Shown: positions 9,340 to 62,787 of the stretch, one piece after another
Layout: each line of letters starts with the position of its first letter
Numbering within the stretch: position 1 is the stretch's first letter
The notes under the pieces: model-generated
What the model saw: only the letters and a program-made list of their open reading frames with translations
Databases searched by the model: none
Told to the model about the DNA's origin: nothing
Virus record (IMG/VR): IMGVR_UViG_3300029414_000238
From: a virus
Strand: one strand, 5' to 3'
DNA length: 64,000 nucleotides
Translations under genes and position numbers: made by a program

Positions 9340-9432
9340 ACGATACCAAAGAAAGTCCGGTTTGCAGTGTACGAAAAATGCAACCACCGGTGCAGTTTTT
9401 ACTTCGAAAAGATCGGACTGGATATGGCGTAA
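9340..9432 (+). pseudogene. internally deleted remnant of an HNH endonuclease gene (paralog of 46757-47191)
   Basis: KKVRFAVYEKCNHRC (the HNH start) is fused directly to YFEKIGLD (the HNH C-terminus; compare QFYFEKIGINID at 47120). Confidence 0.5.
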
Positions 9433-9482
9433 GTTTTCAAAAAATCTTTGACGATTTTTCAAAAGGCGCAATATGTATAGTG
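9432..9482 (+). promoter_or_regulatory. conserved promoter-like cassette, copy 2
   Basis: aagttttcaaaaaatctttgacgatttttcaaaaggcgcaatatgtatagtg. Confidence 0.55.
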
Positions 9483-9619
9483 TAAAGGTCATAAACCGAG
9501 CTGCCAGGGTTACCGGCTGGCAGAAAATCCTTTCGAAAAATGTTTACGTTCCGGGAAATCCCCGGAAAGGATAGTGGGTACGCAGCGCAAGTTATTCCGG
9601 GTTCGACTCCCGGATATCC
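9483..9619 (+). ncRNA. structured tRNA-like RNA element, family A copy 1 (candidate 5' leader or sRNA)
   Basis: Three hairpins: ctgccag-ggttaccgg-ctggcag, ccggg-aaat-ccccgg, and a T-arm-like ccgggTTCGActcccgg closed by ggata/tatcc. The second copy at 14513-14646 shows compensatory changes. Confidence 0.4.
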
Positions 9620-10847: not shown

Positions 10848-10921
10848 CGCCGCCTGCGGGATTCGAACCCGCGGATAAAGAGTTCAAAGCTCCCTGCGTT
10901 AACCTTTTCGCCAAGGCGGAG
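10848..10921 (-). tRNA. tRNA-Gln (anticodon TTG)
   Basis: Revcomp gives D-arm GCG-AAAAGGTTAA-CGC, anticodon loop CTTTGAA and T-arm GCGGG-TTCGAAT-CCCGC. The anticodon stem carries GU pairs and CCA is not encoded. Confidence 0.4.
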
Positions 10922-10991
10922 CACACCCGGAAGGACTCGAACCCTCGTTACCGGTTTTGGAGACCAGTTTCTGTCCATCAGACAGGTGCAT
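10921..10991 (-). tRNA. tRNA-Trp (anticodon CCA)
   Basis: Anticodon stem-loop CTGGT-CTCCAAA-ACCGG, T-arm GAGGG-TTCGAGT-CCTTC and D-arm TCTG-ATGGA-CAGA. The acceptor stem contains wobble pairs. Confidence 0.45.
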
Positions 10992-10993
10992 AA

Positions 10994-11065
10994 CAGGCGA
11001 TAATGGAATCGAACCATTGTTTTCTGAGTCAGAATCAGATGTCTTACCATTGAACGAATCGCCCA
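10994..11065 (-). tRNA. tRNA-Gln (anticodon CTG)
   Basis: Anticodon stem-loop TCTGA-TTCTGAC-TCAGA, T-arm AATGG-TTCGATT-CCATT, acceptor GGGCGAT/ATCGCCT. Confidence 0.5.
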
Positions 11066-11066
11066 G

Positions 11067-11138
11067 TATCCCCAAAGGGACTCGAACCCTTAACCGACAG
11101 ATTAGAAATCTGTTGCTCTTTCCAATTGAGCTATGGGG
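11067..11138 (-). tRNA. tRNA-Arg (anticodon TCT)
   Basis: Acceptor ATCCCCA/TGGGGAT, D-arm GCTC-AATTGGAAA-GAGC, anticodon stem-loop ACAGA-TTTCTAA-TCTGT, T-arm AAGGG-TTCGAGT-CCCTT. Confidence 0.55.
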
Positions 11139-11145
11139 ATATATA

Positions 11146-11230
11146 GCGCAGACACCGGGGATCGAACCCGGACAGCGGGTGTGCCGCATGCCACATTAGC
11201 AGTGTGGAGGGGTACCATTTACCTTTATAT
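11146..11230 (-). tRNA. tRNA-Ser (anticodon GCT), long variable arm
   Basis: Acceptor GCAGACA/TGTCTGC, anticodon stem-loop CCACA-CTGCTAA-TGTGG, long variable arm, T-arm CCGGG-TTCGATC-CCCGG. The D-arm is atypical. Confidence 0.45.
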
Positions 11231-11239
11231 GTCTGCATA

Positions 11240-11313
11240 AGAGGCATCGGAGGGGATCGAACCCTCGCCTTCCGGGTTGCAGCCGGACGCCTTCGCCGTT
11301 TGGCTACGATGCC
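11240..11313 (-). tRNA. tRNA-Cys (anticodon GCA)
   Basis: Acceptor GGCATCG/CGATGCC, anticodon stem-loop TCCGG-CTGCAAC-CCGGA, T-arm GAGGG-TTCGATC-CCCTC. Confidence 0.6.
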
Positions 11314-11342
11314 ATATAATTCTTCCCGATAAGAGAAGATGA

Positions 11343-11429
11343 GCGCTGGGGCAGGGAGTCGAACCCTGATATCCTTTCGGAATGACGGTTTTCAGGACCG
11401 TTGCTTTACCAGTTGAGCCACCACAGCAA
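11343..11429 (-). tRNA. tRNA-Ser (anticodon TGA), long variable arm
   Basis: Anticodon stem-loop ACGGT-CCTGAAA-ACCGT, a variable-arm hairpin TCC-GAAA-GGA, T-arm CAGGG-TTCGACT-CCCTG. Position 33 is C, which is unusual, and the acceptor has one mismatch. Confidence 0.4.
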
Positions 11430-11672
11430 AAATAAAAGCATACACCTCTCAATCGAAAGATGTATGCTTTGCAATTCCAGGTATTTCCAATATTCTCCCG
11501 GAAATTTCCCTACAATGACCACATTTCTTTCAATTTGAGACAATATTTATTTGCACGACAACTACGCCAGATACATGACTGCGACTGACTCATACTTGCC
11601 TGTGAATATTGTCTCATTACTGCTGTAATCATTGATTTTCCCTTCCTTTCCTTGGTTTTCTTGAATATTTAG

Positions 11673-11749
11673 TGTGTCTGGTGGGACTTGAACCCGACGA
11701 CCCCACGATTAAAAGTCGCGTGCTCTGCCAACTGAGCTACAGACACATA
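11673..11749 (-). tRNA. tRNA-Lys (anticodon TTT)
   Basis: Acceptor GTGTCTG/CAGACAC, D-arm GCTC-AGTTGGCAG-AGC, anticodon loop CTTTTAA. The T-stem has an A.C mismatch. Confidence 0.55.
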
Positions 11750-11823
11750 AGCGGATCAGGAGGGAATCGAACCCTCATCTTCCGGTAGACAGCCGGATGT
11801 ACTAGCCGCTATACTACAGATCC
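11750..11823 (-). tRNA. tRNA, probably Asp (anticodon GTC)
   Basis: T-arm GAGGG-TTCGATT-CCCTC, anticodon stem-loop TCCGG-CTGTCTA-CCGGA. Position 37 is a pyrimidine and the acceptor has a U.U mismatch. Confidence 0.35.
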
Positions 11824-11827
11824 ATAA

Positions 11828-11900
11828 AGCTCCCGTCCGGCTTCGAACCGGAAACCTTCTGATTACAAGTCAGATGCACTACCAGTTGTGCTACAGGAGC
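11828..11900 (-). tRNA. tRNA-Thr (anticodon TGT)
   Basis: Acceptor GCTCCTG/CGGGAGC, D-arm GCAC-AACTGGTAG-TGC, anticodon stem-loop TCTGA-CTTGTAA-TCAGA, T-arm TCCGG-TTCGAAG-CCGGA. Confidence 0.55.
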
Positions 11901-11983
11901 AGGAACACTTCCGACGGGTGCTGCCCCGCTATCTCCGCCGTGACAGGGCGGTGACTCTGTTGTTTGTCCTCGGAAGTAAATAA

Positions 11984-12066
11984 GTGCGCCGGGGAGGACT
12001 CGAACCTCCGGTGTTTCTTTGTGGCTGATTTACAGTCAGCTGCTGTCGCCTCTGAGCCACCGACGC
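11984..12066 (-). tRNA. tRNA-Tyr (anticodon GTA), long variable arm
   Basis: Anticodon stem-loop GCTGA-CTGTAAA-TCAGC, long variable arm, T-arm GGAGG-TTCGAGT-CCTCC. Confidence 0.5.
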
Positions 12067-12071
12067 ATAAG

Positions 12072-12142
12072 CTGGTCCGGAGGGTCTCGAACCCTCAACG
12101 CCCCGGTTAACAGCCGGGTGCTCTACCATTGAGCTACGGATC
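12072..12142 (-). tRNA. tRNA-Asn (anticodon GTT)
   Basis: D-arm GCTC-AATGGTAG-AGC, anticodon stem-loop CCCGG-CTGTTAA-CCGGG, T-arm GAGGG-TTCGAGA-CCCTC. Confidence 0.5.
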
Positions 12143-12145
12143 AGA

Positions 12146-12216
12146 GCATGTGACGGGTCTCGAACCCGCCCGTCCTGCTTGGAAGGCAGGTGTGCCGCCA
12201 ACAACACTTCACATGC
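12146..12216 (-). tRNA. tRNA-Gly (anticodon TCC)
   Basis: Acceptor GCATGTG/CACATGC, anticodon stem-loop CCTGC-CTTCCAA-GCAGG, T-arm CGGG-TTCGAGA-CCCG. Confidence 0.5.
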
Positions 12217-12841
12217 ATGCGGATAAAAGAAGTGCCTGTTTTCTCTTATCCATTCAGTTTTTTTACCGCATCGCTGCGGAGTGGACAGGAGTGGTAACGA
12301 TCCACCCTGTAAGGATTTTCAGTCCTTCGCTAATCCATCTCAGCTACCTGTCCATGGCTTTTTCTGCAATAAAAAAGCCGCATCAAGAAATTTCCTCTTC
12401 TCTCTGCGGTCATCTGCGTTTTGCAATATTTCGGTTTTAAGTGCCTGGTTTAAAATCGAAATCGACCGCGGGAAGGTGTATCATAATAGTTCTGTCCCCA
12501 TGTTTTCCCGGATTTTGAGCATGAGAAACTAAACATATTGCTGAAATCGCCGTATGTTCTACAATCATTATTAAAATTTTTACTACTCATCATCTTTAAC
12601 ATGGTTTTCTTTTCCTTTCATTTTAATTAATGCTGGATAAACAAAAAGCCCGTCACTTAACTCAAAGCTACACATCCAAATAGCTCTGAGTTAAAAGACA
12701 GGCACTTCTTTTATCTCATGCACCTATCATATCATACTGATCGTGAAGTGTCAACAGGAAATTTAAAAAAGGTTATTTTCCTAAAGGTTATTTTTGGTTA
12801 TTTTGGTTATTTTTCAAAATAAAACAAAATAAAACAAATAA

Positions 12842-13632: not shown

Positions 13633-13965
13633 TTGAAATGTTTGACATGCAAGAAACACTGGTCGCAGGGAGGCCGCTGTTCAGAGAACGTGAGAAACTG
13701 CCTGCATTATGAGGAAGAACCAAGAGGAAAAATGGTCCGCACAGAACTGTCTTTTCGTATGGATGCAGAGGCGGAAACTCCGGTGGTCAGATTTGGAGAG
13801 AAAATACTGGTTTCCGATGGTTCAAAAGCGGTCGAGATGACTGTGGTCAAGATCAACTGGGTTAATCTTCGGGATATGCTCTGCAATGTATCCGCGGATT
13901 ATCATGAGAATGAGATGCCGCGATTTGAGAAAGAAAAGAAGTTCAAAGCATTACATGGAAAATAG
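13633..13965 (+). CDS. hypothetical protein
   Basis: 110-aa ORF; stop TAG 13963-13965 abuts the first CRISPR repeat. Confidence 0.4.
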   Translation: MKCLTCKKHWSQGGRCSENVRNCLHYEEEPRGKMVRTELSFRMDAEAETPVVRFGEKILVSDGSKAVEMTVVKINWVNLRDMLCNVSADYHENEMPRFEKEKKFKALHGK

Positions 13966-14071
13966 TTGCATTCCAGTGGAATGCATGGGGTGAAAGAAAT
14001 AGGCAAATCGCATGACAATTTCTGAAATTAAATTGTTGCGCTCCCGTGGAGGGGGGCGTATGGATTGAAAT
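13965..14071 (+). CRISPR. mini-array: degenerate repeat - 37-nt spacer - repeat (type I-C-like repeat family)
   Basis: gttgcattccagtggaatgcatggggtgaaag ... gttgcgctcccgtggaggggggcgtatggattgaaat. Confidence 0.6.
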
Positions 14072-14400: not shown

Positions 14401-14461
14401 GTTTTGCTCCTTTCAAAATACTTTCGTTTACACTTTCAATATGAAATGAAAATATTTCAAA

Positions 14462-14510
14462 ACATTTCCAAAAACTTTTGACGATTTTTTAAATGGCGCA
14501 ATATGTATCA
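14462..14510 (+). promoter_or_regulatory. conserved promoter-like cassette, copy 4
   Basis: aacatttccaaaaacttttgacgattttttaaatggcgcaatatgtatcatg. Confidence 0.55.
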
Positions 14511-14512
14511 TG

Positions 14513-14646
14513 TAAAGGTCATAAACCGAGCTGCCAGGGTTATCGGCTGGCAGAAATCTTTTCGATATTTGTTTACACTCCGGGGAAACCCGGAAGGGGT
14601 AGTGAGGACGCAGCGTGTGCTGTTTCCGGGTTCGATTCCCGGGTAT
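14513..14646 (+). ncRNA. structured tRNA-like RNA element, family A copy 2
   Basis: Same three-hairpin architecture as 9483-9619 with covarying stems (ccgggg-aaa-cccgg; ccgggTTCGAttcccgg). Confidence 0.4.
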
Positions 14647-14928: not shown

Positions 14929-15657
14929 TTGATGATGGAGAAAGAAGTAGTATATGTTGCAGAACTGGATTCCGATGTTGATGATGTCGTTGCGGCACAT
15001 TACTTATTTAACGAGGGTGTGTTAAAGTGTGTAGTATGCGATCCATATCCAAGAACACCGGAGGGGTTGGCACGAAAGGGAAAGCTGGAAGCGCTTGGCA
15101 TCGATGTGGTTAAGAAAATGCCACCGGTTGCAAAATATGTGTTTGTTGGCGGCGCTCTTACGGCTGTTGCTGGCTATATCCGGATGCACCATGTCGACTG
15201 GCTGGTAATGAACGGAGGCTTTGTTGGAGCAAATATTGCGACCTTTGAACTGGATAAGTTCAAGGGGAAGAACACTGTCCGTACCTTCAATTTCAACTGC
15301 GATGTTGTGGCTGCAGATACGGTTTTGAAAACTGATGAGAAGCATATTTCTCATATTGTTCTTGTCGGAAAAAACGTCTGCCATGACGTCCGAAATACGA
15401 AAAATGGTCTCTGGAGTGGCGAGAAATACAAGAAATTGTTCGATGAGTACCGGGTTAAGGATGAGAAGCGTCAACACGACTTGCTTGCCTGCCATGAGGG
15501 GCTTGCATTTCTGCGGGGAACCAATGCGATCTGTGAGTATGAGATGGTAAGACCATACAACACAGGCTTGAATGGCAAGCTGACGCAGTGGGGTAGCACA
15601 AAAACCATGGAAACACCATATCGCGAAGTGCTTGCTGCTGTTGGCTACCAGAATTAA
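14929..15657 (+). CDS. hypothetical protein with a weak nucleoside-hydrolase-like N-terminal Asp cluster
   Basis: AELDSDVDDVVAAHY resembles the DXDXXXDD fingerprint but is one residue short. A long 5' leader of about 280 nt separates it from the cassette. Confidence 0.35.
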   Translation: MMMEKEVVYVAELDSDVDDVVAAHYLFNEGVLKCVVCDPYPRTPEGLARKGKLEALGIDVVKKMPPVAKYVFVGGALTAVAGYIRMHHVDWLVMNGGFVGANIATFELDKFKGKNTVRTFNFNCDVVAADTVLKTDEKHISHIVLVGKNVCHDVRNTKNGLWSGEKYKKLFDEYRVKDEKRQHDLLACHEGLAFLRGTNAICEYEMVRPYNTGLNGKLTQWGSTKTMETPYREVLAAVGYQN

Positions 15658-15659
15658 AA

Positions 15660-15765
15660 GCTGCATCATGTGCGGGGGTGTATGGATTGAAATGTCGGAG
15701 TATGGTGTAAGAATCATATATATTCCTACGTTGTGCTCCTCCCGGTTGGTGCACGGGTTGAAATA
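15660..15765 (+). CRISPR. mini-array: repeat - 36-nt spacer - degenerate repeat
   Basis: gctgcatcatgtgcgggggtgtatggattgaaat ... gttgtgctcctcccggttggtgcacgggttgaaat; it starts 3 nt after the stop of 14929-15657. Confidence 0.6.
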
Positions 15766-16462: not shown

Positions 16463-17335
16463 ATGAGAAAAAGTGTGAAAGATTTTGGAAATTTTGTAAG
16501 AAAAGACAATTACCCGGAGCTTCCAGAAGAATTGAAAGAATTTAACTATTTTTTGAGTGATGGCGAGACGGGACATGTGATCATGGCTGTGCCTGAGCAC
16601 ACTTTGAATAAAGCAGAAGAAAATGTGGATGAACTGGATGATTACGAATGTCCAGTTCCAGTGGCATATGTTCTTAAGAATGGCTATCGGCTGTATAAGA
16701 ACCATGTAATATGCCAGGTTCCGTACGATGAGAAACTGGGGATGCGTATTCCGGAAGAATATTACGAACCGTCGATTATTTCTACAGATGCCGGGGAAGC
16801 AGAGAATCCGGTGTCCGGAGAGTTCCCTTATGAGAAAAGGAAATGCTATCCAGAATTTGCAAACCATGCAGAAGCTGTAGTTGCGGATATCGTTAAGGAT
16901 TACGTGCAGATCCGCGTATTTTTTAAAAATCCTACAGAAAACGAGATTGCACAGTTTTCTCCGGATGCCAGACTGAAAATTCGTTTTACGGAGATGGATG
17001 GAACCTGTCTGTTTACCGTTAAAGCTGGTGATTTGTCATGGATGGATGCACCATACCATGCAAAACTTGCAAAAGATTTGTCTGGATTCGACTTTACAGG
17101 TGAAAGTGAGATTCCGTTATATCTCCTCCTGATCGACTCATCGAATGGTGAGGTCAAAGCGGTTCGAAATGTCCAGTTGTCAGAAGAGTTTTCCAGCAAA
17201 TTGAGAAATCTGGTGGATCGTCAGGTCAACTCTGATTTTGATAAAAAGAAATATGCGGATATATTGTCCAACATTTATCTCCTTTTTTCATCGGATGAGC
17301 TGGCGGATGCCAGCACCATTAAGTGTCAGTGGTAG
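16463..17335 (+). CDS. hypothetical protein (290 aa)
   Basis: Good RBS AAGGAGAAGG; no recognisable Cas or nuclease motifs; lies immediately upstream of a four-repeat array. Confidence 0.5.
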   Translation: MRKSVKDFGNFVRKDNYPELPEELKEFNYFLSDGETGHVIMAVPEHTLNKAEENVDELDDYECPVPVAYVLKNGYRLYKNHVICQVPYDEKLGMRIPEEYYEPSIISTDAGEAENPVSGEFPYEKRKCYPEFANHAEAVVADIVKDYVQIRVFFKNPTENEIAQFSPDARLKIRFTEMDGTCLFTVKAGDLSWMDAPYHAKLAKDLSGFDFTGESEIPLYLLLIDSSNGEVKAVRNVQLSEEFSSKLRNLVDRQVNSDFDKKKYADILSNIYLLFSSDELADASTIKCQW

Positions 17336-17355
17336 GTAAGAAGATATACTTTACT

Positions 17356-17574
17356 GTTGCGCCCCATTGGGTGCATGGGTTGAAATCTTTATGACCTTCT
17401 GAAAAGTGAGGGCATCTTAGTTGCACCCCCGCAAGGGATGTATGGGTTGAAATTCAATAGAAACAGATGCATTCGAAGGCGTTACAAGTTGCACCCCGCG
17501 AGGGGTGTATGGGTTGAAATTGCAGAAAGCTCAGGATTGGAAGGTTGCATCCTATGGGATGCATGGATTGAAAC
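17356..17574 (+). CRISPR. CRISPR array, 4 repeats and 3 spacers, I-C-like repeats
   Basis: gttgcgccccattgggtgcatgggttgaaat / gttgcacccccgcaagggatgtatgggttgaaat / gttgcaccccgcgaggggtgtatgggttgaaat / gttgcatcctatgggatgcatggattgaaac. Confidence 0.75.
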
Positions 17575-17600
17575 GAACATATTTGTTATTATTTATTATT

Positions 17601-17650
17601 GAGATCAGAAAGGTCTGCAGTCAGTTAATCTGGCTGCAGATTTTTTTTTG
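17601..17650 (+). terminator. rho-independent terminator
   Basis: ggtctgcagtcagttaatctggctgcagatttttttttg. Confidence 0.7.
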
Positions 17651-17710
17651 CAATTTTTTAAAAATTTTCCAAAATCTTTTGACGATTTTTTAAAAGGCGC
17701 AATATACATA
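17651..17710 (+). promoter_or_regulatory. conserved promoter-like cassette, copy 5
   Basis: aaaaattttccaaaatcttttgacgattttttaaaaggcgcaatatacatattg. Confidence 0.55.
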
Positions 17711-17711
17711 T

Positions 17712-17920
17712 TGAAGGGATAAACAGGGGCTTACCGTTTGTTTCTTCAATAAGAGTTTTTCTCTTATATGCCTCCTTAAGTTTCCTGCGCTGCATTTACA
17801 GCATTTTGGCAGCGCAGGGGGAATCCACAGGACTGCATTTGACGTTGTGTGGCGGCCTGCTCATCCGGTTCAACCCCGGAGGATTCCCTTACCGCTTATT
17901 TTTGCGGAGACAAAAATTTT
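17712..17920 (+). ncRNA. candidate small RNA, family B, between two cassette copies
   Basis: No ORF is present. Starts aaacaggggcttaccg, as the cas-operon leader does (17981-, aaacaggggcttgccg). Contains a 10-bp perfect hairpin cctgcgctgc...gcagcgcagg and a T-loop-like ccGGTTCAAccCCgg, and ends in the terminator ccgcttatttttgcgg plus A/T run. Confidence 0.35.
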
Positions 17921-17975
17921 AAAAAATATTCAAAAATTCTTTGACGATTTTTTAAAAGGCGCAATATGTGTATTG
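17921..17975 (+). promoter_or_regulatory. conserved promoter-like cassette, copy 6 (candidate cas-operon promoter)
   Basis: aaaaatattcaaaaattctttgacgattttttaaaaggcgcaatatgtgtattg, 90 nt upstream of cas5c. Confidence 0.55.
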
Positions 17976-18020
17976 AAGGAATAAACAGGGGCTTGCCGCT
18001 GTTGATTACCAGAGTTAAAA

Positions 18021-18053
18021 GTTGTGCCCCTATGGGGTGCATGGGTAATAAGA
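18021..18053 (+). CRISPR. solo degenerate repeat-like hairpin in the cas5c 5' leader
   Basis: gttgtgcccctatggggtgcatgggtaataagag against the array repeat gttgcaccccgcgaggggtgtatgggttgaaat. Confidence 0.5.
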
Positions 18054-18060
18054 GAAAGGA

Positions 18061-18735
18061 ATGGAAAAAGAAAAAATGGGAGTGAAACTAAAAGTCTGGG
18101 GAGATTACGCATTGTTCACCAGACCAGAACTGAAAACTGAACGGTATACATACGATGTGATGACACCGTCGGCGGCTAGAGGAATTCTGGAATCTATCTA
18201 CTGGCATCCGGGACTTCGGTGGTATGTAGACAAGATTCATGTATTAAATCCGATTGCCACTACGAGCGTGAGAAGAAATGAACTTCTCAGTAAGATACCA
18301 AAGTCAAATATGCTGCAGGCATACAACGGCGGGGATGTGAAACTGTATAACTCGTCAAGAGACGATATTATCCAGAGGGCATCTGTTATTCTCCGGGATG
18401 TCTGCTATGTGATTGAGGCGCATTTTGAAATGACAGGGAAAGCGAGCCCAACAGACAGCCCGGCAAAGTTTATAAGTATCTTTAACAACAGGGCAAGAAA
18501 AGGGGCATGTTATTCGATGCCGTATTTTGGTGTAAGGGAATTCCCGGCACACTTTGAACTCTGCGAAGGAGATGAAAAGATCCCATCCTACTATGAAGGA
18601 CTTCCGGATAAAGATCTCGGGCTGATGCTTTATGATCTGGATTACTCCTGCGGTAGAGATATCCAGCCAATGTATTATCATGCGATTATGAAAAACGGCG
18701 TTATTGACGTTGGGAACAGTGAGGTGCTTCGATGA
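18061..18735 (+). CDS. cas5: Cas5c (Cas5d, type I-C)
   Basis: VWGDYALFTRPELKTERYTYDVMTPSAARGILESIYWHPGLRWYVDKIHVL is the Cas5d N-terminal signature; the gene overlaps cas8c by ATGA. Confidence 0.85.
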   Translation: MEKEKMGVKLKVWGDYALFTRPELKTERYTYDVMTPSAARGILESIYWHPGLRWYVDKIHVLNPIATTSVRRNELLSKIPKSNMLQAYNGGDVKLYNSSRDDIIQRASVILRDVCYVIEAHFEMTGKASPTDSPAKFISIFNNRARKGACYSMPYFGVREFPAHFELCEGDEKIPSYYEGLPDKDLGLMLYDLDYSCGRDIQPMYYHAIMKNGVIDVGNSEVLR

Positions 18736-20471
18736 TCCTTCAGTCACTTGTGAAATTATATGAAACACTTGCGGATCAGGGAAAAGTGTCCCGTCCTGGC
18801 TGGTGTAATGCAAAGGTATCCTATGCGGTGGTTTTAAACCATGATGGGACGATTAAAGATATTGTTTCCGTGAAACAGAAAGTGAAGAGAGGAAAGAAGA
18901 CTGTTGAAATTCCAATAATTATGCAGGTTCCAGAGATGGTCACCCGCGCTAACAACATTGCCTCCAGCTTTCTCTGCGAAAATGCAAAGTATCTCTTTGG
19001 GATTGACGAAAAGATGAGTTTGCGTACACTGGAATGTTTTAAGGCGGCAAAGAAAAAACATCTTGATATTCTTGATGTTGTGGATTCACCTGTAGCACAG
19101 ACGGTATGTAACTTTTTCCGTTCATGGGATCCGGAACAGGCGTTGGATCAACCGGCTGTTGCAAAACTTGCAGAAGAGTTTTATAAAGGCGGAAACCTCG
19201 TTTTTGAAGTAGATGGGGAATATGTGCATGATAATGAAGAAGTCCGCAGGGCATGGATGGATTACAGCAGTGTACCATATGAAATGGTAACTGGAAGATG
19301 CCTTATTACTGGAGAGGAAGCGGAGATTGCCCGCACGCACGGGAAAATCAAAGGAGTTCCGGGAGCACAGTCATCTGGCGCGTCGCTTGTATCATTTAAC
19401 GGAGCATCCCTTGAGTCTTATGAAAAAACACAGAGCTACAACGCGCCGATTAGCACCTATGCGGCGTATGCATATGTGACCGCGCTGAATTACTTGCTTT
19501 CTACGGACGGGTATCACAGCAAGGTAGGAGATTCCATGGTGGTTTTCTGGACAGATTCCGGGGATGTGGATGATGTGAGCAGACTGCGGAAGATGATGGG
19601 AAGCATCAATGAAAAGGATCACACCCCTACAGATACGGATGAAAAACTGTACGTCCTCTGCCTTGCACCAAATGCCGGGCGAATTGCAGTCCGGTTCTTC
19701 TATGAGGATGCGATCGGGGTAATCTGGGAAAACCTGTCCGAACATGCCAGTCGGATGAAGATTGTAAAACCAGTATTTGAGGATCAAGAATTTATCAATA
19801 TCTGGCAGATGCTCATGGAGACAGTCAACCAGAATCTTACAGATAAAATACCTGTCCCGCATATGTCAGCAATGACGTTACAGTCAGTCATTTCGGATAC
19901 ACCGTATCCGCAGAGTCTGTATGCAGGTGTGTTATCTCGTATCCGCGCGGAGCACAAAGGTGTTACTTACAGAAAAGCATCGATTATTAAAGCTTTTTTA
20001 ATAAAGAACTACAAATGGGAGGAAGGAAAAAATATGGAAGCATTAAATGAAGGCTGTAAGGATCGGGCATATATCCTTGGAAGACTGTTTGCGGTTATGG
20101 AAAAGGCACAGAAAGAAGCAGTTGGCAATATCAACCAGACAATTTGTGATAAGTTTTACAATTCCGCGTGCACAACACCAAGATCGATCTTTCCAGTACT
20201 GATCAGGCTATCTAACAGTCATTTAAGTAAGTTGAAACGGACAAAACCGGGGAGAGGATATTATTTTACAGCTAAAATGCAGGATTTAATGGATAAAATT
20301 CCGGTAACAGATGATGATCCGGGATTCCCGCGGCGTTTCTCATATGAGGATCAGGGTAAGTTTGCACTTGGTTATTATCATCAGATGCGGGCGGAATATA
20401 CAAGCAGTAAGTTAAAAGATAATGATTCAGAAGGTGATCAGACAAATGCAGAGAATATGGAGGAAAACTAA
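18732..20471 (+). CDS. cas8c: Cas8c (Csd1, type I-C large subunit)
   Basis: 579 aa; MILQSLVKLYETL is the typical Csd1 start; it lies between cas5 and cas7. Confidence 0.8.
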   Translation: MILQSLVKLYETLADQGKVSRPGWCNAKVSYAVVLNHDGTIKDIVSVKQKVKRGKKTVEIPIIMQVPEMVTRANNIASSFLCENAKYLFGIDEKMSLRTLECFKAAKKKHLDILDVVDSPVAQTVCNFFRSWDPEQALDQPAVAKLAEEFYKGGNLVFEVDGEYVHDNEEVRRAWMDYSSVPYEMVTGRCLITGEEAEIARTHGKIKGVPGAQSSGASLVSFNGASLESYEKTQSYNAPISTYAAYAYVTALNYLLSTDGYHSKVGDSMVVFWTDSGDVDDVSRLRKMMGSINEKDHTPTDTDEKLYVLCLAPNAGRIAVRFFYEDAIGVIWENLSEHASRMKIVKPVFEDQEFINIWQMLMETVNQNLTDKIPVPHMSAMTLQSVISDTPYPQSLYAGVLSRIRAEHKGVTYRKASIIKAFLIKNYKWEEGKNMEALNEGCKDRAYILGRLFAVMEKAQKEAVGNINQTICDKFYNSACTTPRSIFPVLIRLSNSHLSKLKRTKPGRGYYFTAKMQDLMDKIPVTDDDPGFPRRFSYEDQGKFALGYYHQMRAEYTSSKLKDNDSEGDQTNAENMEEN

Positions 20472-20472
20472 G

Positions 20473-21384
20473 ATGAGCACACCAATTAAGAACAGATATG
20501 ATTTCGTAGTATTATTCGACGTAGAGAATGGAAATCCGAACGGTGATCCGGATGCCGGAAATATGCCGAGAGTTGATCCAGAGACTGGCATCGGGCTTGT
20601 GACAGATGCCTGCATAAAGCGCAAGATCCGTAATTATGTGGAAACTGTAAAAGAAGATGCAGCCGGGTTCAAGATCTATATTAAAGAGGGGGTCCCGCTG
20701 AACCGGAGTGACCTTAAGGCAGTCGAAAGTCTTGGTATTGACGTCGGTGACGACAAAAATGCACTTGAAGATGTAAAGAAGCTGAAAAAGACAGATGAAG
20801 ATGTGGATCTTAAGCTCCGTGACTATATGTGTAGTAATTTCTATGATATCCGTACATTTGGTGCTGTCTTGACTACCTTTACAAAGGCGGCATTAAACTG
20901 TGGGCAGGTACGTGGCCCGGTACAGATTGGTTTTGCAAAAAGTATTGATCCTGTTTTCAGCCAGGATATTACTGTAACCAGAGTTGCAATCACAACGGAA
21001 AAGGATGCGGAAAAGAAAAATACAGAAATGGGAAGAAAGAGTATTATTCCTTATGGACTTTACCGTGTGGAGGGATATATTTCTGCTAATCTTGCCCGTA
21101 AGACCACCGGCTTTTCTGAAGACGATCTGGAACTGCTTTGGGAAGCAATCATTAACATGTTTGAGAATGACCATTCCGCAGCACGCGGGAAGATGGCAGT
21201 GCGTGAGCTCATCGTATTCAAGCATAACAGCGAGCTTGGCAATTGTCCATCGTACAAACTGTTTGAAACTGTTGATGTTAAGAAGAATGATGGTGTTGAG
21301 TTTCCTCGTAAATATTCCGATTATGCAGTGACTATTCATGAGGATGCGATTCCGGATGGCGTGACAATGACTCGCAAAATCTAA
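20473..21384 (+). CDS. cas7: Cas7c (Csd2, type I-C)
   Basis: MSTPIKNRYDFVVLFDVENGNPNGDPDAGNMPRVDPETGIGLVTDACIKRKIRNYV is the Csd2 signature. ATG 20473 sits 1 nt after the cas8c stop; the ORF-track start at 20422 is an artefactual extension. Confidence 0.85.
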   Translation: MSTPIKNRYDFVVLFDVENGNPNGDPDAGNMPRVDPETGIGLVTDACIKRKIRNYVETVKEDAAGFKIYIKEGVPLNRSDLKAVESLGIDVGDDKNALEDVKKLKKTDEDVDLKLRDYMCSNFYDIRTFGAVLTTFTKAALNCGQVRGPVQIGFAKSIDPVFSQDITVTRVAITTEKDAEKKNTEMGRKSIIPYGLYRVEGYISANLARKTTGFSEDDLELLWEAIINMFENDHSAARGKMAVRELIVFKHNSELGNCPSYKLFETVDVKKNDGVEFPRKYSDYAVTIHEDAIPDGVTMTRKI

Positions 21385-21634
21385 AAAGATTTCCAGAGAT
21401 TACAAGGCAACCCGCGTTTTGCGGGCTGCATCTGCTTGGGTTATGCCGAAATGTAGAATTCCGGTGCGAACTGAAAGCTTACATAGCTTCTCTGGGAGAC
21501 TCGCACCGGAAATGGAGGTATTAGTGTACAAAAAGAACACAAAACCCAACTGTATAAGGCCGTTTGAGAACAATTAATTAGAGGAATTGTTTATATTTTG
21601 GCGATCGGGAGAGTTGTTTCTGTTCACTTTTACA

Positions 21635-22346
21635 GCTACGCCCCATGGAGGGGCGTATGGATTGAAAATACCGCAACAATTAAAGGCAATGAAAATCTTG
21701 TACGCTACGCCCCATGGAGGGGCGTATGGATTGAAAATGATTGTTATTGTTTTTTATTCATGGAGAGGAAAGCTACGCCCCATGGAGGGGCGTATGGATT
21801 GAAAAGTAAGGTTTCGTCTCGAAGCCTTTATTCTGTTTTGCTGCGCCCCATGGAGGGGCGTATGGATTGAAATACCAAAATCTTTTGACATTCTTATAAA
21901 TGGTAACAGCTACGTCTTATGGGGTACGTATGGATTGAAATCATAATAATTGTAGAGATCTCAATACAAAATAAAGCTGCGTCTCATGGAATACGTATGG
22001 ATTGAAATGAAAAGGCGAGTTTGCGAAAGCAGATATTGGAATGTTGCGTCTCGTGGAGTACGTATGGATTGAAATTCCAACTTTAACTACATAACTATCC
22101 TGATAAACTTGCTGCACCCCATGGAGAGTGTATGGATTGAAATTTAAAAAATCATGGATAACATCTGCGATAAGACGTTGCACCTCGCTAGGGGTGTATG
22201 GGTTGAAATTTCCATAATCGGTAGCCAATTATTATCATTAGGTGTTGCACCCCATAGAGGGTGTATGGATTGAAATTATATAAAAATGATGAATATGTAA
22301 AAAAAATAAAAGAGTTACGCTCCATGGAGTGCGTATGGCTTGAAAC
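21635..22346 (+). CRISPR. CRISPR array, 11 repeats of 33 nt and 10 spacers of 33-37 nt, type I-C repeat family
   Basis: The first four leader-proximal repeats are identical (gctacgccccatggaggggcgtatggattgaaa); later repeats diverge progressively (..gtcttatggggtac.., ..gcaccccatagagggtg..). The period is 66-70 nt and the last repeat ends GAAAC. ORFs 21587-21870 and 21941-22228 are artefacts of the repeats. Confidence 0.9.
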
Positions 22347-22417
22347 CTCTTATTTTTTTAAAGATATCACAATTACGCCCAAAGTGGGCTTACGTAAATT
22401 TAAAGGAGAAAAGTACA

Positions 22418-28890: not shown

Positions 28891-29443
28891 ATTTTTATCA
28901 TTTCCGGATGTCACGATTATCTGCAATGATTGCCACGGCAGAGGCTTTGCGGTTGTTGCAGAGAGTATTCGTGAACTGTCCGACAATATAAAGCAGCTGA
29001 TTGAACAGAACAATAAGGATTGAAGATGATATCCTGTATTTAATGTCAAAGTGAAAGGAGAATTGTATATGGTTGTTATTATTGGAGCAATAATTGTTTT
29101 TTGCCTTTTCATGGGAGTTATTCTTATAATTTCCGGATGTCACGATTATAACGAAGCAAACAGAGGAATGGAGATTGGCATTGGTATTTCTCTTATCCTC
29201 GCCCCAATTGTTGTTACGTTGACATATCTGGCTTTTGGAGGTGTGTTGTAATTTCTTGCGGAGCAGAGCAGAGGAAGGCTCACCGGGCTCATGACCTGGG
29301 TGTCGGATGTTCGATTCCTTTCTCCGCAATTAATTTTAAAAAAGGGAGGTTATAACATGTTCTAACTGATTAAAAAACATAAACAAGCATTCGTTCAAAA
29401 GAAAGATTCGTATGTGAAAAAAGGATGGGAGGAAAAGAAAATC

Positions 29444-41040: not shown

Positions 41041-41105
41041 GCAAAAATTTTTAAAAACTTTTCAAGATTTCTTTGACGATTTTTCAAATGACGCAATATC
41101 TATAG
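41041..41105 (+). promoter_or_regulatory. conserved promoter-like cassette, copy 7
   Basis: aaaaatttttaaaaacttttcaagatttctttgacgatttttcaaatgacgcaatatctatagtg. Confidence 0.5.
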
Positions 41106-41142
41106 TGTAAGGATAAAAATGCGAAGTACAAGGAGGAAAAAT

Positions 41143-41775
41143 ATGGGAAAATTAAAGAAAATTGTTGTATCAGCACTGATTGTCGGCATGTTGTGCGCAT
41201 GTACCGGGTGCGGGTTGTTTGATAGTGAGGTTAATGAGTTGAACGGAACGATAAAAGGAAATACCTATAATATTTCCTTTTATTCCAATGAAGGAGAGAA
41301 ATTCATGGAAATGTCCGGTCAGAAGATTGACATGAATTCGAATACTGTTGAAGAACCTACATATACGGATAGCGGGTGGGGATATACCCAGACTCTTTCC
41401 AGTGTAGTCACAATTACTGTAGATGGCAAGGAAGTTGAAAGTTGTGGAACTACAATGTTGTTTGCAGAAAATGGCCTGTCGCCGGATGTTGATTTTACAC
41501 AGCCGGATAAAATTAACAGTAAGACGGATGGGAAGCTGTCTGATAATACTATCATTGCCAAGACGGTAAATAAATATAAAAACTATTTTGGAAAGTCTAG
41601 GATTGTAGTCATTCAATCACAGCTTGGAGATCCAATCTGCGCATATTCCGGGGATGAAGTGTATTGGAAAGTGTGCAAGGACCTACCAAAGACAACAAAA
41701 CTGATGGTTGATGGAAAGGCGTTGTATATCCACCGTGCGAATTTCCAGATCATCGACAAAGCACTTCTTAAATAA
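41143..41775 (+). CDS. lipoprotein
   Basis: Signal peptide with lipobox MLCACTGCG. Confidence 0.55.
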   Translation: MGKLKKIVVSALIVGMLCACTGCGLFDSEVNELNGTIKGNTYNISFYSNEGEKFMEMSGQKIDMNSNTVEEPTYTDSGWGYTQTLSSVVTITVDGKEVESCGTTMLFAENGLSPDVDFTQPDKINSKTDGKLSDNTIIAKTVNKYKNYFGKSRIVVIQSQLGDPICAYSGDEVYWKVCKDLPKTTKLMVDGKALYIHRANFQIIDKALLK

Positions 41776-42916: not shown

Positions 42917-43020
42917 GTTGCACTCCCGCGGAGGGGGTGCATGGATTGAAATCGACTTTCAAAACGGTAATTGGATTTTACTACGCTGCGTCCCCGCGAG
43001 GGGCGCATGGATAAAGAAAC
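42917..43020 (+). CRISPR. mini-array: repeat - 32-nt spacer - degenerate repeat, in the 5' leader of gene 43039
   Basis: gttgcactcccgcggagggggtgcatggattgaaat ... gctgcgtccccgcgaggggcgcatggataaagaaac. Confidence 0.6.
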
Positions 43021-43038
43021 AGGGAAAGGGAGGGAACG

Positions 43039-43438
43039 TATGAGTATATTACAAAATGTTGTCGATGAGTATACAAAAGATTACCATCCGACGGAGAAGC
43101 AATTGGATACGGTGGACGAACTTTATACAAACAATAGGGAATTGGATGTTGGTAAGTATTACGGTGATGCCTCAATGGTTATCGGTGGAGCAAGAGGAGA
43201 TATAGCTGCAATGGAAACGATCGCAGGTGTTTGCGCCCGCCTTTGTACAAAACCAGAGGAGGATATGACGGCGGCTCCGCAGATTGCGGCAGGTGTGCAT
43301 GCCCGCTGGCCTGACGAGCAAATGGTTCTTTCAAAGGCGGACAGCGGGATGTCGTTTGCTACAAAAATGGATGTTGTTCGGACGTGTTTTAACGAGAATG
43401 ACGTGCAGGTTGTGATTGATCCGAAGAGGGAGGTTTGA
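43039..43438 (+). CDS. hypothetical protein
   Basis: ATG 43039 follows AGGGAGGGAACGT; the ORF-track start at 42971 runs through the second CRISPR repeat. Confidence 0.45.
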
Positions 43439-57304: not shown

Positions 57305-57396
57305 GTTGCATCCCTTATGGGATGTATGGGTTGAAATGCAATCAGGCTGCGGATGCTACCGGCTTGTTGCGCTTTATGAGGCGCATGGATGGAAAT
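57305..57396 (+). CRISPR. mini-array: repeat - 28-nt spacer - degenerate repeat
   Basis: gttgcatcccttatgggatgtatgggttgaaat ... gttgcgctttatgaggcgcatggatggaaat. Confidence 0.6.
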
Positions 57397-59329: not shown

Positions 59330-61030
59330 CCGTCCCAGAAAGTGATACTACTTTGCGTGATGACTTTGTTTCGAGGTGATACTATTTCCAAAAATTCTGT
59401 AGAAAATCCAGTAAAACATAAGGGCACCCGCGGAAATCGGCCGTCACAAAAAACTAAGCTGGAAGCTGCCGCGTCTTCGCGTGCAGATCAATTAGAAACC
59501 AGCTTCCGTACAGAAAGAAACCCTTCTGCCAAGAAAACAACGCAGAATTTTCCAATACCAGCTTTCCAAAGCCCCAGAAGAGTACAGCAGGAGAGCAGCC
59601 TTTCGGTGGAAAATAGTATCAGTAAAGCAGGCCGGAGTAAAGAAAAACAACAAAAATGGTATCACCAGAAGAACAGAAAATAGTATCACCTCAAAAATAG
59701 TTTCAGTAAACCAGCTCCCACATACCGATAAGGAAATATCCGGATAAAGACAGATTGCTGCTGATACTATTTCCCGTACAGATACTTGCTGCGCATGGAT
59801 ATCGCCTGATACTAGCCTGATACTATTTTCCATATCCGTCCCCGCACATTTCCCCCACACCTGCTGATACTATTTTCACCGCACGGATATCGCCTGATAC
59901 TTTTTTTTTAGTGATACTATTTTAAACACATAGAATTCGAGTGGTTTAGGCAAATACTGTAAGGACTAGGGCAGAAGCACAGAAAATACAAGAAAACCGG
60001 GTGATACTACTATTCCTTTATAAATCCGTCCAAATAGTATCACCTTTGTGGTATTGGATAGTATCACCTTATTGGTACTATATAGTATCACCCGTATGAT
60101 ACTTAACAAAAGGAAAACATACAGATCCTGCCGCTTTCGTATCAACTTGCTGATATTAAATAGTATCACCTTATTGATACTAAGCAGTATCACCTTTATG
60201 GTATTCTTTTCTTTCCCATTTTTCTCCCTGGTTCCACGCAAGCCTGTGAAATAAGTATAGGAAGCGGCAGACAGGGGAGGGTGGGAGTATTTTTTATGTT
60301 CAAAAGTATCACCTTACTGATACTAAACAGTATCACCTTTATGGTACTGAATACAGAAACGACCGTGGCAATCCATTTTAGTATCATCTTGTTGGTACTA
60401 TGTAGTATCACCTTGCTGATACAAATCTTACCGCAAGAACGCGAGAAAGCAGGAATAACAGGACAAAACAGGGATACACCTTGAACATAAGGGGAGGGGA
60501 TGGGAAGTAAAAAGAAAACAAAAGTATCACCTTGGTGGTACGGTGTAGTATCACCTTACTGATATGATACATGGTAGAGGACAGAGAAAACGTGTGGGGT
60601 ACGTGGGAGAGACAAGGAAGAAGCAGGGTATCCCGGCGGTCATCTGGTGCTTTTATTCCGGGCAGAGCCGGCCTGACCGCTTTATGAAACTACAGACACT
60701 GATGCTTTGCGGCGCATATACAGTACAAATGTGCTTGTGTGGCGCCGCAGAAGGGTGAATGCGGGAAGAAAAAGGGAAAGGTAAGAAAGAATACCGTAAA
60801 AGTTCATAAGGACGTGCAAGAATACAGCACGGACAAAACGTGTGGGGCGCGAGAACTCAAGAACGCAAGAATTCAAGAAATAGTATCACCAAGGTGGTAT
60901 CACTTAGTATCAGTAAGGTGATACCGGTACTGGTACTGGAAATACAGGAGGAAGATCAGGGATGGTACTGGGAACTACCTTGGAATGTGTAAAATAGTAT
61001 CACCAAGGTGGTATGTTTCCGTGGCGCGAT
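59330..61030. repeat. iteron field: more than 20 copies of AGTATCACC / GGTGATACT, mostly in pairs spaced about 25 bp apart
   Basis: For example tagtatcaccttattggtactatatagtatcacc (60054, 60079); 60161/60186; 60306/60331; 60522/60546; 60880; 60995. Inverted copies gtgatactat sit at 59338, 59375, 59765, 59815, 59868, 59902 and 60000. Confidence 0.75.
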
Positions 61031-61731: not shown

Positions 61732-62787
61732 ATGTCTTCAGTTAACTGGGGCGGCAATCACGGAAGTGCAAAATGCAGCAAAAAAGATCATATCCGCGGA
61801 GTAAATCTTTTAAAGCATTGTGATCAGACGTTCCGAGCTGATCCAACAAAGCAGCACAGCAATATCGAGATTGATCCGTCAAAGTCATATCAGAACCAAA
61901 ACTTCACAGGAATGTCATGGAAGGAATCAAGGGAAAAATGGGAAAAACGTCTTGTGGAACTAGATAGAACAACAAATACAAACAAAAGGGATGACCGGGT
62001 TGAAATGACAAGTCTGGAAATGCCGGTACCGCTTGGAATGACAAATGAAAAAGCAAAGGAGTTGTTTCAAGATTTTTACGATATGTGCCGGGAAAAATTC
62101 GGGGATGAGAATATCATCAGCGCAACAAGCCACTTTGATGAGATCGCTCCTTACACGGATGCGAAAGACGGAATGATTAAAGTATCCAGACCTCACATTC
62201 ACATTCAGGTTGTTCCGGAGGTAAATGGAAAATTAAGCAACAAGGATTTCTCTTCCCTGACCAATATCCTGAAAATGAACCAGGCAGTTGAAAAGCTGTG
62301 CAACGAAAAGTACCACGTAAGATTTAACACAGGGGAAACCCCAAGGCGGCAGAGTACGGAACATCTGAAAAAGAATTCCCGGTATGCAGAGAAGCTTACA
62401 AAGGAAGTAAACCAGAGACAGGAATATATGAAAAATATAATCCTTGATGACGGACGGACCGCGGAAGATGATTTTATGGATGGCGGTGATGGATCGGTTG
62501 TAAATGAGGAAAAGAATAAAATTCCAGAAGAGTTGGTGAAGCAGAGAGATGATGCTTACAGAGAGAAAAATGAACAGGGAAAAATTCTTAAGCAGATGCA
62601 GGAGGAGAATGAAAGATTAAAACGGGAAATCAAGGAACGTGACTACAAAAGGAAATGCATCGAAAAAGGGATTGAGTTGCAGAAAAACGGGGAATCGATA
62701 CGTGAAGAATTGCATTCACTTTTAAGTAATCTTGAGGAAACAGGACGGGAGGAACTTGATTTTACGGAAGATCTTGACAGATCCTGA
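61732..62787 (+). CDS. MobV-family (Mob_Pre / plasmid recombination enzyme) relaxase
   Basis: N-terminal GGNHGSAKCSKKDH..R and the HxDE...PHxHxxVVP motif (SHFDEIAPYTD...SRPHIHIQVVPEVNGKLS) match pMV158 MobM (VHLDESTPHMHMGVVPFENGKLS). The C-terminus is a coiled coil. Confidence 0.7.
   Translation: MSSVNWGGNHGSAKCSKKDHIRGVNLLKHCDQTFRADPTKQHSNIEIDPSKSYQNQNFTGMSWKESREKWEKRLVELDRTTNTNKRDDRVEMTSLEMPVPLGMTNEKAKELFQDFYDMCREKFGDENIISATSHFDEIAPYTDAKDGMIKVSRPHIHIQVVPEVNGKLSNKDFSSLTNILKMNQAVEKLCNEKYHVRFNTGETPRRQSTEHLKKNSRYAEKLTKEVNQRQEYMKNIILDDGRTAEDDFMDGGDGSVVNEEKNKIPEELVKQRDDAYREKNEQGKILKQMQEENERLKREIKERDYKRKCIEKGIELQKNGESIREELHSLLSNLEETGREELDFTEDLDRS

Follow-up and report, generated by a model that had tools for sequence, protein, structure and literature searches.

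A solitary degenerate type I-C repeat in the leader of a cas5c-cas8c-cas7 operon as a candidate site of feedback by Cas5c

The tracr-L RNA autoregulates the effector of its CRISPR system by guiding that effector to promoter DNA. CreR and related mini-arrays also guide an effector to promoter DNA, and degenerate creA/CreR-like mini-CRISPRs have been noted for type I-C systems (10.1101/2023.03.10.532045; PMC10120712). In Myxococcus xanthus, the Cascade-related proteins DevT, DevR and DevS (Cas5-like) are reported to repress their own dev operon strongly, its transcript rising about 10-fold in in-frame deletions (10.1101/2023.07.26.550624). Here we analyse a stretch of 64,000 nucleotides (nt) from IMG/VR virus record IMGVR_UViG_3300029414_000238, hereafter the window, which encodes type I-C cas5c, cas8c and cas7, as identified by Pfam and NCBIfam matches. 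The region 17914-18075 is best explained as the promoter and 5' untranslated region (UTR) of this operon, and it contains a single degenerate type I-C repeat on the sense strand. We describe the anatomy of the leader, the resemblance of its hairpin to the repeat family, the retention of the hairpin across two leader alleles and its absence from bacterial relatives, and we consider whether it could act as a weak mimic of CRISPR RNA (crRNA) precursors.

The leader consists, in order, of a promoter cassette, a 5' stem-loop, a 30-nt gene-end relic and the solitary repeat, followed by the ribosome-binding site (RBS) and the three cas genes:

17914..17969, plus strand: cassette copy 6 (Pcas), A/T-rich in its upstream part, with TTGACG (17941-17946) separated by 15 nt from an invariant CAATAT (17962-17967)
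17974..17977, plus strand: predicted transcription start of the cas operon, 7-10 nt past CAATAT
17980..18007, plus strand: 5'-proximal stem-loop of the leader, present in the minimum-free-energy and centroid folds
17991..18020, plus strand: gene-end relic, from a paralogue of gene 14929-15657, identical to 15630-15659 at 26 of 30 nt (87%)
18021..18052, plus strand: solitary type I-C pseudo-repeat GTTGTGCCCCTATGGGGTGCATGGGTAATAAG
18054..18075, plus strand: purine-rich Shine-Dalgarno region (GAAAGGAATGGA) and an A-tract of strain-variable length
18076..18735, plus strand: cas5c, 219 amino acids (aa); Pfam Cas_Cas5d 2.5e-38, NCBIfam cas_Cas5d 8.6e-52, PDB 7kha_A 3.8e-65
18732..20471, plus strand: cas8c (Csd1); Pfam Cas_Csd1 6.1e-165, NCBIfam 9.3e-120
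20473..21384, plus strand: cas7 (Csd2), 303 aa according to public assembly gene calls; Pfam Cas_Cas7 1e-107

An initial annotation of the window had proposed that a degenerate I-C repeat hairpin precedes the cas5c RBS, and this hairpin proved to be real. We built a covariance model (R1) from 20 other I-C repeats of the window, excluding the leader sequence, and scanned both strands of the 64 kb. The model matched the leader at 18021-18049 with 19.9 bits (E 0.011). If the training repeats are set aside, along with two array repeats that duplicate one of these, a higher score was reached only by a degenerate repeat at 42985, and the next unrelated matches reached 12 bits at most. The hairpin proper, at 18023-18041, is also the predicted fold and has an 8-bp stem closed by a 3-nt loop (TAT). 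Its pairs are T-A, G-C, U.G and five more, followed by ATGG; the stem base T-A/G-Y/C-G and the ATGG are invariant in the 20 true repeats. The pseudo-repeat has, then, the form of a type I-C stem-loop, with a conserved stem base followed by the cut-site bases. It belongs to no array, the nearest repeats being those at 17544-17574 (446 nt upstream) and 21635.

Recognition of a repeat by Cas5c reportedly involves the base of its stem, its cut site and its 3' overhang, and in particular the part nearest the cut site; after cutting, Cas5c keeps the handle and seeds assembly of Cascade (PMC5965381, PMC8524198). Going by the cut position given in PMC8524198, cleavage of the pseudo-repeat is predicted between 18041 and 18042. 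The 11-nt handle that would follow, TGGGTAATAAG (18042-18052), departs from the canonical TGGRTTGAAAT (UGGRUUGAAAU in the RNA of this element). Positions 1-5 are canonical, while positions 6, 7, 8 and 11 are changed, including bases that are invariant in true repeats. In the pseudo-repeat, the stem base is retained, as are the predicted cut site and handle bases 1-5. Residues 2-211 of the 219 in the element's Cas5c align with Cas5c of D. vulgaris. The protein retains all residues invariant in the Cas5c proteins of complete bacterial I-C systems, and it appears to be a competent enzyme.

We compared the leader across the lineage in which Cas5c is at least 90% identical, using L-numbers (L003, L013, L122 and so on) for the related strains and loci examined. 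Two leader alleles are present. The window-type allele occurs in L003-L012, L109-L112, L119, L120, L122 and L123, and the L13-type allele in L013, L014, L103-L108, L113-L115 and L121, strains whose Cas5c is 95% identical to that of the window. The alleles have near-identical cassette and cas5c sequences, but most positions in the 70-odd nt that separate the two are different. The order of parts is nevertheless shared, namely a 5' stem-loop, a linker, a repeat-like hairpin, TGGRTRATRAG and GAAAGGAATGG, and the last three stand 30-34 nt before the AUG in each. The 5' stem-loop of the L13 allele is a different one at the same position.

The hairpins themselves (GTTGCATCTTCGGATGTA in the L13 allele, GTTGTGCCCCTATGGGGTGCA in the window) differ by one double-sided change (C-G to U-A) and three one-sided changes that preserve pairing. 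A symmetric loss of two base pairs gives the L13 stem a UUCG loop; this stem is shorter but pairs. Model R1 scores the L13 allele at 17.1 and 13.4 bits, and the cut-site-proximal ATGGRT is kept in both alleles. Single-nucleotide polymorphisms (SNPs) within alleles lie in the linker and the 5' hairpins, with disruptive ones in L113 and L115. We sampled 36 distinct array repeats in these strains, none of which equals either hairpin, and a very recent copy from an array is therefore unlikely. The shared pattern of handle degeneration suggests common descent of this part of the leader. A metagenome scan with the hairpin flanks and a free gap of 60-90 nt recovered five contigs, each with one of the known alleles.

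Bacterial relatives are organised differently. We searched 85 bacterial I-C loci (L015, L018-L019, L021-L102) with model R1 and with a hairpin-plus-TGGRT pattern in the 300 nt upstream of cas5c, and none (0/85) had a repeat-like sense element adjoining the cas5c RBS. Many of these Lachnospiraceae loci instead have a weak antisense model match upstream of cas5c, for example at 1872-1905 on the minus strand of L024 and at 3790-3830 of L015. The 14 loci that we read in detail and L015 share one layout for this antisense unit: a -10-like box, GTCAGGnnnnCCTGTGGATTGAAAT (a short stem and a canonical handle), then about 20-30 nt that resemble a spacer, and a terminator. Gene calls for L015 and L018 place the unit just after cas3. 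These antisense units are probably CreR/creA-like regulators. The mobile element in the window lacks such a unit and has the sense pseudo-repeat in its place, and the pseudo-repeat appears to be specific to this element.

The proposal that a shared promoter cassette precedes the cas operon also holds. The consensus TTGACGATTTTTyAAAwGGCGCAATAT occurs in eight copies in the window, all on the plus strand and each with at most two mismatches, where 100 shuffles gave an expectation of zero. The core of the cas copy is TTGACGATTTTTTAAAAGGCGCAATAT at 17941-17967 (TTGACG-N15-CAATAT). An RBS and an open reading frame (ORF) follow within 25-95 nt of four copies, and conserved or structured leaders follow the rest. 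From this repetition and positioning we infer that the cassette, which is specific to the element, is a promoter. A generic sigma-70 scan does not call it, because its TTGACG and CAATAT lie 15 nt apart, against 16-18 nt between the -35 and -10 hexamers of a sigma-70-type promoter.

The initial annotation had placed the transcript start near 'aaacagggg'. Cassette copy 3 has a Shine-Dalgarno sequence only 9 nt past CAATAT, so transcription of that copy must start within this gap; by analogy, the cas transcript probably starts a few bases further upstream than was proposed, near 17974-17977. As had been suggested, the hairpin, a sense-strand feature that follows the promoter-like cassette, would still lie within the leader of the cas5c-cas8c-cas7 messenger RNA (mRNA).

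The cas5c start codon is most likely ATG 18076. We rejected ATG 18061, whose reading frame is not conserved among strains because the A-tract between the two ATGs differs in length. Members of the 90% cluster have been called at 219, 224, 245, 246 or 254 aa, depending only on the leader. The cassette does lie upstream of cas5c as first described, although its core ends 108 nt before ATG 18076 rather than 90 nt; the hairpin end and the predicted cut site lie 34 nt before this ATG. The purine tract at 18064-18075 varies among strains in both length and sequence, with an A-run of 5 or 6 nt, or GA or GAAGA instead. This variation shifts the spacing between Shine-Dalgarno sequence and AUG by up to 4 nt and may tune translation. 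The RBS and AUG are unpaired in the predicted folds, so that an added protein could plausibly block the RBS. A terminator or riboswitch at the leader hairpin was considered and rejected, given that no U-run follows the stem and the RBS is unpaired.

We tentatively propose as the best reading, with low confidence, that the pseudo-repeat is a weak crRNA mimic through which Cas5c or Cascade could exert feedback on its own mRNA. Free Cas5c would recognise the pseudo-repeat as a weak mimic of pre-crRNA. It might then cut at 18041|18042, so that the mRNA would lose its triphosphate end along with the 5' stem-loop and begin with a 5'-OH. Alternatively, it might stay on the pseudo-handle and nucleate Cas7 over the next ~24 nt (18053 to ~18078), covering the Shine-Dalgarno sequence and the AUG. 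Through either route or both, each derived from known chemistry, feedback would be negative, and cas expression would drop when Cas proteins exceed the real crRNA precursors, and it would recover as the many arrays of the element titrate the Cas proteins. A weak competitor of pre-crRNA would be expected to combine an intact stem, cut site and proximal handle with a spoiled distal handle, as this leader does. Repair of the handle to TGGGTTGAAAT should, on this model, strengthen repression. Our confidence is low because we infer every functional step, from the transcription start through binding or cleavage by Cas5c to any effect on expression. Feedback control, as first suggested for this leader, remains plausible and is somewhat strengthened by the comparisons above.

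Further I-C repeats bear on this proposal. The window contains about two dozen, all on the plus strand, grouped into an array of four repeats, a block of 11 and four mini-arrays of two repeats each:

13965-14071, 15660-15764, 17356-17574, 21635-22346, 42917-43018 and 57305-57396, plus strand: type I-C repeat regions
42985..43018, plus strand: degenerate-handle repeat (TGGATAAAGAA) abutting an RBS; model R1, 25.4 bits
21874..21908, plus strand: cassette-like array spacer between a 4-repeat and a 7-repeat array; candidate CreR-like guide

The stems of these repeats vary yet pair: 89% of cells are paired and 17 cells have changes on both sides, which none of 500 shuffles matched. True repeats show no variation in the stem base or in the handle core (ATGG and GAAA). 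The mini-array at 42917-43018, composed of a repeat, a 32-nt spacer and the degenerate-handle repeat, is located in the 5' UTR of ORF 43040-43438, and the region 42917-43045 is identical in three other contigs. Repeat 42985 is the last of its mini-array, with a predicted cut site 32 nt before the ATG of that ORF. This succession of degenerate-handle repeat, RBS and ORF parallels the cas leader and supports a general design, but repeat 42985, unlike the cas leader repeat, is required in any case to supply a crRNA with its 3' hairpin.

Other properties of the arrays deserve mention. The repeats are unusually heterogeneous, nearly every one in 21909-22346 having its own stem with compensating changes, and one spacer recurs in a differently arranged array of L013. 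Together with the lack of adaptation genes seen in the window, this suggests that the arrays hold fixed guides rather than adaptive ones. Two spacers are short, at 17521-17543 (23 nt) and 57338-57365 (28 nt), compared with the usual 33-35 nt; the first of them and the sequence past repeat 57366 both start with TGCAGAAA. A short spacer is one feature by which regulatory crRNA-like RNAs are marked. The genes at 13633-13965 and 14929-15657 end at or overlap the first repeat of a mini-array (stops at 13963-13965 and 15655-15657), so that mRNA and crRNA would be co-transcribed and then separated by Cas5c.

The second of these genes is central to one of the two main competitors of the mimic proposal, in which the hairpin is a neutral relic. 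The leader segment 17991-18020 reads LAAVDYQS*, against LAAVGYQN* at the end of the intact gene 14929-15657, a nucleoside-hydrolase-like gene with a sub-threshold Pfam IU_nuc_hydro match. The matching segment, 15630-15659, comprises the last codons and stop of that gene, and the mini-array repeat 15660 is directly 3' of it; the pseudo-repeat therefore arrived by recombination as a 'gene end plus repeat' module. A gene end and its first repeat would thus have been joined to cas5c, and the promoter cassette placed upstream later. Cassettes do recombine: in L122, cassettes 5 and 6 have become a hybrid, and cassette 5 is absent from the L13-type strains. The hairpin would then persist through recency or through gene conversion by array repeats, serving at most as generic 5' UTR structure. 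We regard this history without function as doubtful, though it is a serious contender. Several observations weigh against the mimic proposal, and of these the gene-end relic, the small number of alleles and the degenerate handle are in favour of the neutral relic. The relic beside the hairpin marks the repeat as a passenger of recombination, and the repeat could itself be a relic. Only two alleles exist, with Cas5c at least 90% identical and the next relatives at ~66%, and the covariation consequently comes from one comparison; exchange with array repeats, and not selection, could be its cause. About seven variable leader sites lie outside the A-tract and none of them falls in the hairpin, which has a chance expectation of ~25% and involves too few sites for significance. 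The distal handle, also read by Cas5c, is altered at invariant positions, and recognition may have been lost. Degenerate 3' ends, seen here in 42985 and at 3306 of L013, are normal in terminal repeats and need no regulatory explanation. What a neutral relic accounts for less readily is the perfect stem in both alleles, maintained through pairing-preserving changes and symmetric shortening while neighbouring structures take disruptive SNPs in L113 and L115. Nor does it readily explain the ATGGRT kept near the cut site in both alleles, and the absence of an identical repeat among the 36 argues against recent conversion.

In the other main competitor, regulation would act on DNA, as in CreR, with no part played by the pseudo-repeat. 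A crRNA carrying spacer 21874-21908 would guide Cascade to the upstream-promoter (UP) and -35 part of the cassette promoters, cassette 5 included. Positions 2-16 of this spacer equal 17669-17683 (15/15), with 25/35 identical overall by eye, and the 5' flank is TTT, a functional alternative I-C protospacer-adjacent motif (PAM) (PMC5602111). Partial complementarity to cas promoters is a hallmark of CreR and mini-array guides (PMC10120712; 10.1101/2023.03.10.532045), and the spacer fits the CreR pattern better than the hairpin does. It is kept in L119, and in L122 the matching half of the cassette is fused to the cas leader and is the cas promoter itself; the array read from L013, which lacks cassette 5, lacks the spacer too. 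The match to Pcas of the window (copy 6) is nevertheless poor, with mismatches at spacer positions 1, 3, 9 and 10. Even cassette 5 is mismatched at the first of these, and the preferred PAM would be TTC. Alternatively, the spacer could be aimed at cassette variants in competing relatives or be a decayed cassette copy. We consider guidance to the cassette promoters improbable, and compatible with the mimic proposal. The hairpin could also be an RNA anti-CRISPR (Racr) or decoy that, released from an abundant transcript, sequesters the Cas5c or Cas7 of a host I-C system and protects the element. A solitary repeat on a mobile element right after a promoter-like cassette is the layout described for solitary repeat units (SRU) and Racr, a type I-C Racr (RacrIC1) is known (PMC10651486), and the closest relatives of this Cas5c occur in Lachnospiraceae genomes with type I-C, several with cas3 upstream of cas5c. 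This decoy function is very improbable, since SRUs, by their description, stand apart from cas genes (PMC10651486) and the hairpin sits in the element's own cas leader. About two dozen full repeats on the same element would also be far better decoys. Its stem base and junction (CATGG), moreover, follow the element's own repeats, while the units of bacterial relatives have GTGGATTGAAAT. Least probable of all, and barely credible, is that the leader fragment is itself a crRNA-like guide with a 5' end set by initiation. From ~17975 to 18041 it would measure 67 nt, the length of a mature I-C crRNA, and the 46 nt (window) or 45 nt (L13) from the predicted start to the pseudo-repeat equal 11 + 34/35. 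The bases TGTATTGAAGG at 17969-17979 match the canonical handle at 8/11 positions, and at 9/11 in L13 (by eye). They overlap the downstream element of the promoter and would lie mostly upstream of the start, and similar bases follow other cassettes that have no repeat; for these reasons we also rejected TGTATTGAAGG as an upstream pseudo-repeat. BLAST found no PAM-flanked self-target of such a leader 'spacer' in the window on either side of the pseudo-repeat, and its sole match was the homologous gene end, with three seed mismatches and no TTC.

The region upstream of Pcas contains a second cassette and the end of an array unit:

17615..17649, plus strand: terminator-like intrinsic hairpin (CTGCAGTCAG/CTGGCTGCAG) with a T9 run, read from the sequence, which closes the upstream 4-repeat array unit
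17652..17736, plus strand: cassette copy 5, which duplicates the promoter cassette of the cas operon and is 87% identical to 17914-17998
17716..17915, plus strand: strongly structured RNA of ~190 nt behind cassette 5, from which it would be transcribed; fold of -72.3 kcal/mol, z -3.9

The terminator-like hairpin is kept in both strain types and was missed by a simple terminator scan. Cassette 5 lies 262 bp upstream of Pcas, and the duplication takes in the first ~20 nt of the transcript (AAACAGGGGCTTACCG). None of 200 shuffles was as stable as the native fold of 17716-17915. This structured RNA is missing from L13-type strains and from L122, and a search of Rfam with E up to 5 over 17560-18100 returned only chance-level matches, none of them credible for it; at the gathering threshold, Rfam identified transfer RNAs (tRNAs) only. 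A conserved leader of ~105 nt that looks structured follows cassette copies 2 and 4 (9422-9526 and 14452-14556, 87% mutually identical) and, more weakly, copy 7 (41047-41151).

The cas operon is carried by what looks like a large mobile element of plasmid type, one commonly met in gut metagenomes. Its identical Cas5c protein occurs in 847 blocks of a public assembly index, on contigs of up to 321 kb. Plasmid-like marks in the window include a Mob_Pre relaxase (61732-62787), a PcfJ-like protein, iterons, a tRNA cluster and a DNA methyltransferase. About ten iteron-like 24-nt repeats (AGTATCACCTTnnTGGTACT) at 60032-60912 adjoin the relaxase gene, and the two together are likely the replication and mobilisation region; they suggest a plasmid, not a phage. 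Thirteen tRNA genes are clustered at 10848-12353 on the minus strand, with one more at 29257-29329 on the plus strand, and such a cluster is unusual for a plasmid-like element. Among the ORFs annotated in the 64-kb window there is no cas3, cas1, cas2 or cas4. A megablast search of 17300-22400 against phage and plasmid collections gave no match. In IMG/VR, Cas5c peptide patterns retrieved only two distant loci, both without the leader, and a search with the cassette pattern retrieved nothing. The element is not found among GTDB species representatives, where the best Cas5c is 66% identical; the nearest bacterial Cas5c proteins (~66%) are from Lachnospiraceae.

If the mimic proposal is correct, the leader would exemplify a post-transcriptional route of autoregulation that needs only the processing nuclease. 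Mobile elements with effector-only Cascade modules might also use Cas5c sites to organise mixed transcripts of crRNA and mRNA, a purpose that engineered Csy4/Cas6 sites serve in synthetic biology and that would give the leader practical interest. Should the hairpin be no more than a relic, it would still show that cas operons on mobile elements are built from promoter cassettes and 'gene end plus repeat' modules.

The mechanism has its closest analogy in autogenous translational repression by RNA mimicry, as in ribosomal protein operons, the coat protein of phage MS2 and T4 RegA. There, a weaker copy of the primary target lies near the protein's own RBS and repression sets in once the primary target is saturated. 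The analogy concerns the mechanism only, and the protein considered here, Cas5c, is, unlike those repressors, also an endonuclease. To our knowledge, no Cas protein is known for autogenous repression of this kind. The dev operon likewise places Cascade-type proteins, including a Cas5 homologue, in negative autoregulation. The description considered here (10.1101/2023.07.26.550624) presents that control as transcriptional and mentions neither a cis element nor a leader pseudo-repeat; the organisms are unrelated.

Among repeat-derived elements, the degenerate terminal repeat of an array likewise combines an intact hairpin with a decayed handle, and the TGGRTAA pattern of the pseudo-repeat is shared by the terminal repeats 42985 and 3306 of L013. 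The cas leader differs in having no array. There is no repeat one spacer length upstream, and the nearest one ends 446 nt away, beyond the terminator at 17615-17649 and two cassettes. SRU/Racr elements, RacrIC1 included, are also single repeats on mobile elements that follow a promoter and are co-transcribed with a protein gene (PMC10651486). The pseudo-repeat shares this layout, standing 54 nt past the core of a cassette that we take for a promoter. Racr mimics the repeats of the host, inhibits the host system and is not associated with cas genes (PMC10651486), whereas the hairpin described here mimics the element's own repeats, has a degenerate handle and lies 34 nt upstream of the element's own cas5c.

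CreR/CreA-type mini-CRISPRs resemble the cas leader most in context, being likewise repeat-derived and located in the cas locus beside the effector genes. The proposed logic is also alike, in that free effector tunes expression and the crRNA load is thereby sensed, and degeneration on the 3' side of the repeat is typical of CreR. CreR, however, is a separate small RNA, composed of a pseudo-repeat, a pseudo-spacer and a second pseudo-repeat, which guides the effector to PAM-flanked promoter DNA. In the leader there is a single sense-strand repeat within an mRNA, and any effect would be on RNA. Only one model match was found in 17575-21600, and BLAST of the leader returned the duplicated cassette and the homologous gene end, with no TTC flank, rather than a promoter-complementary spacer next to a PAM; such a promoter match is partly seen in spacer 21874-21908. 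It is conceivable, though we think it unlikely, that the leader is an RNA-level counterpart of CreR, in which Cas5c, alone or with Cas7, would read a weakened repeat in its own 5' UTR and effector synthesis would track the pool of crRNA-free Cas proteins. The same device, at 42985, would couple other operons to that pool, and this would be the first natural case of cis repeat mimicry acting through a Cas protein. Among the repeat-derived elements of cas loci, the pseudo-repeat is best filed as a novel variant, a solitary, sense-strand, degenerate-handle repeat in the 5' UTR of the effector operon, on a mobile element in whose window no cas3 was found.

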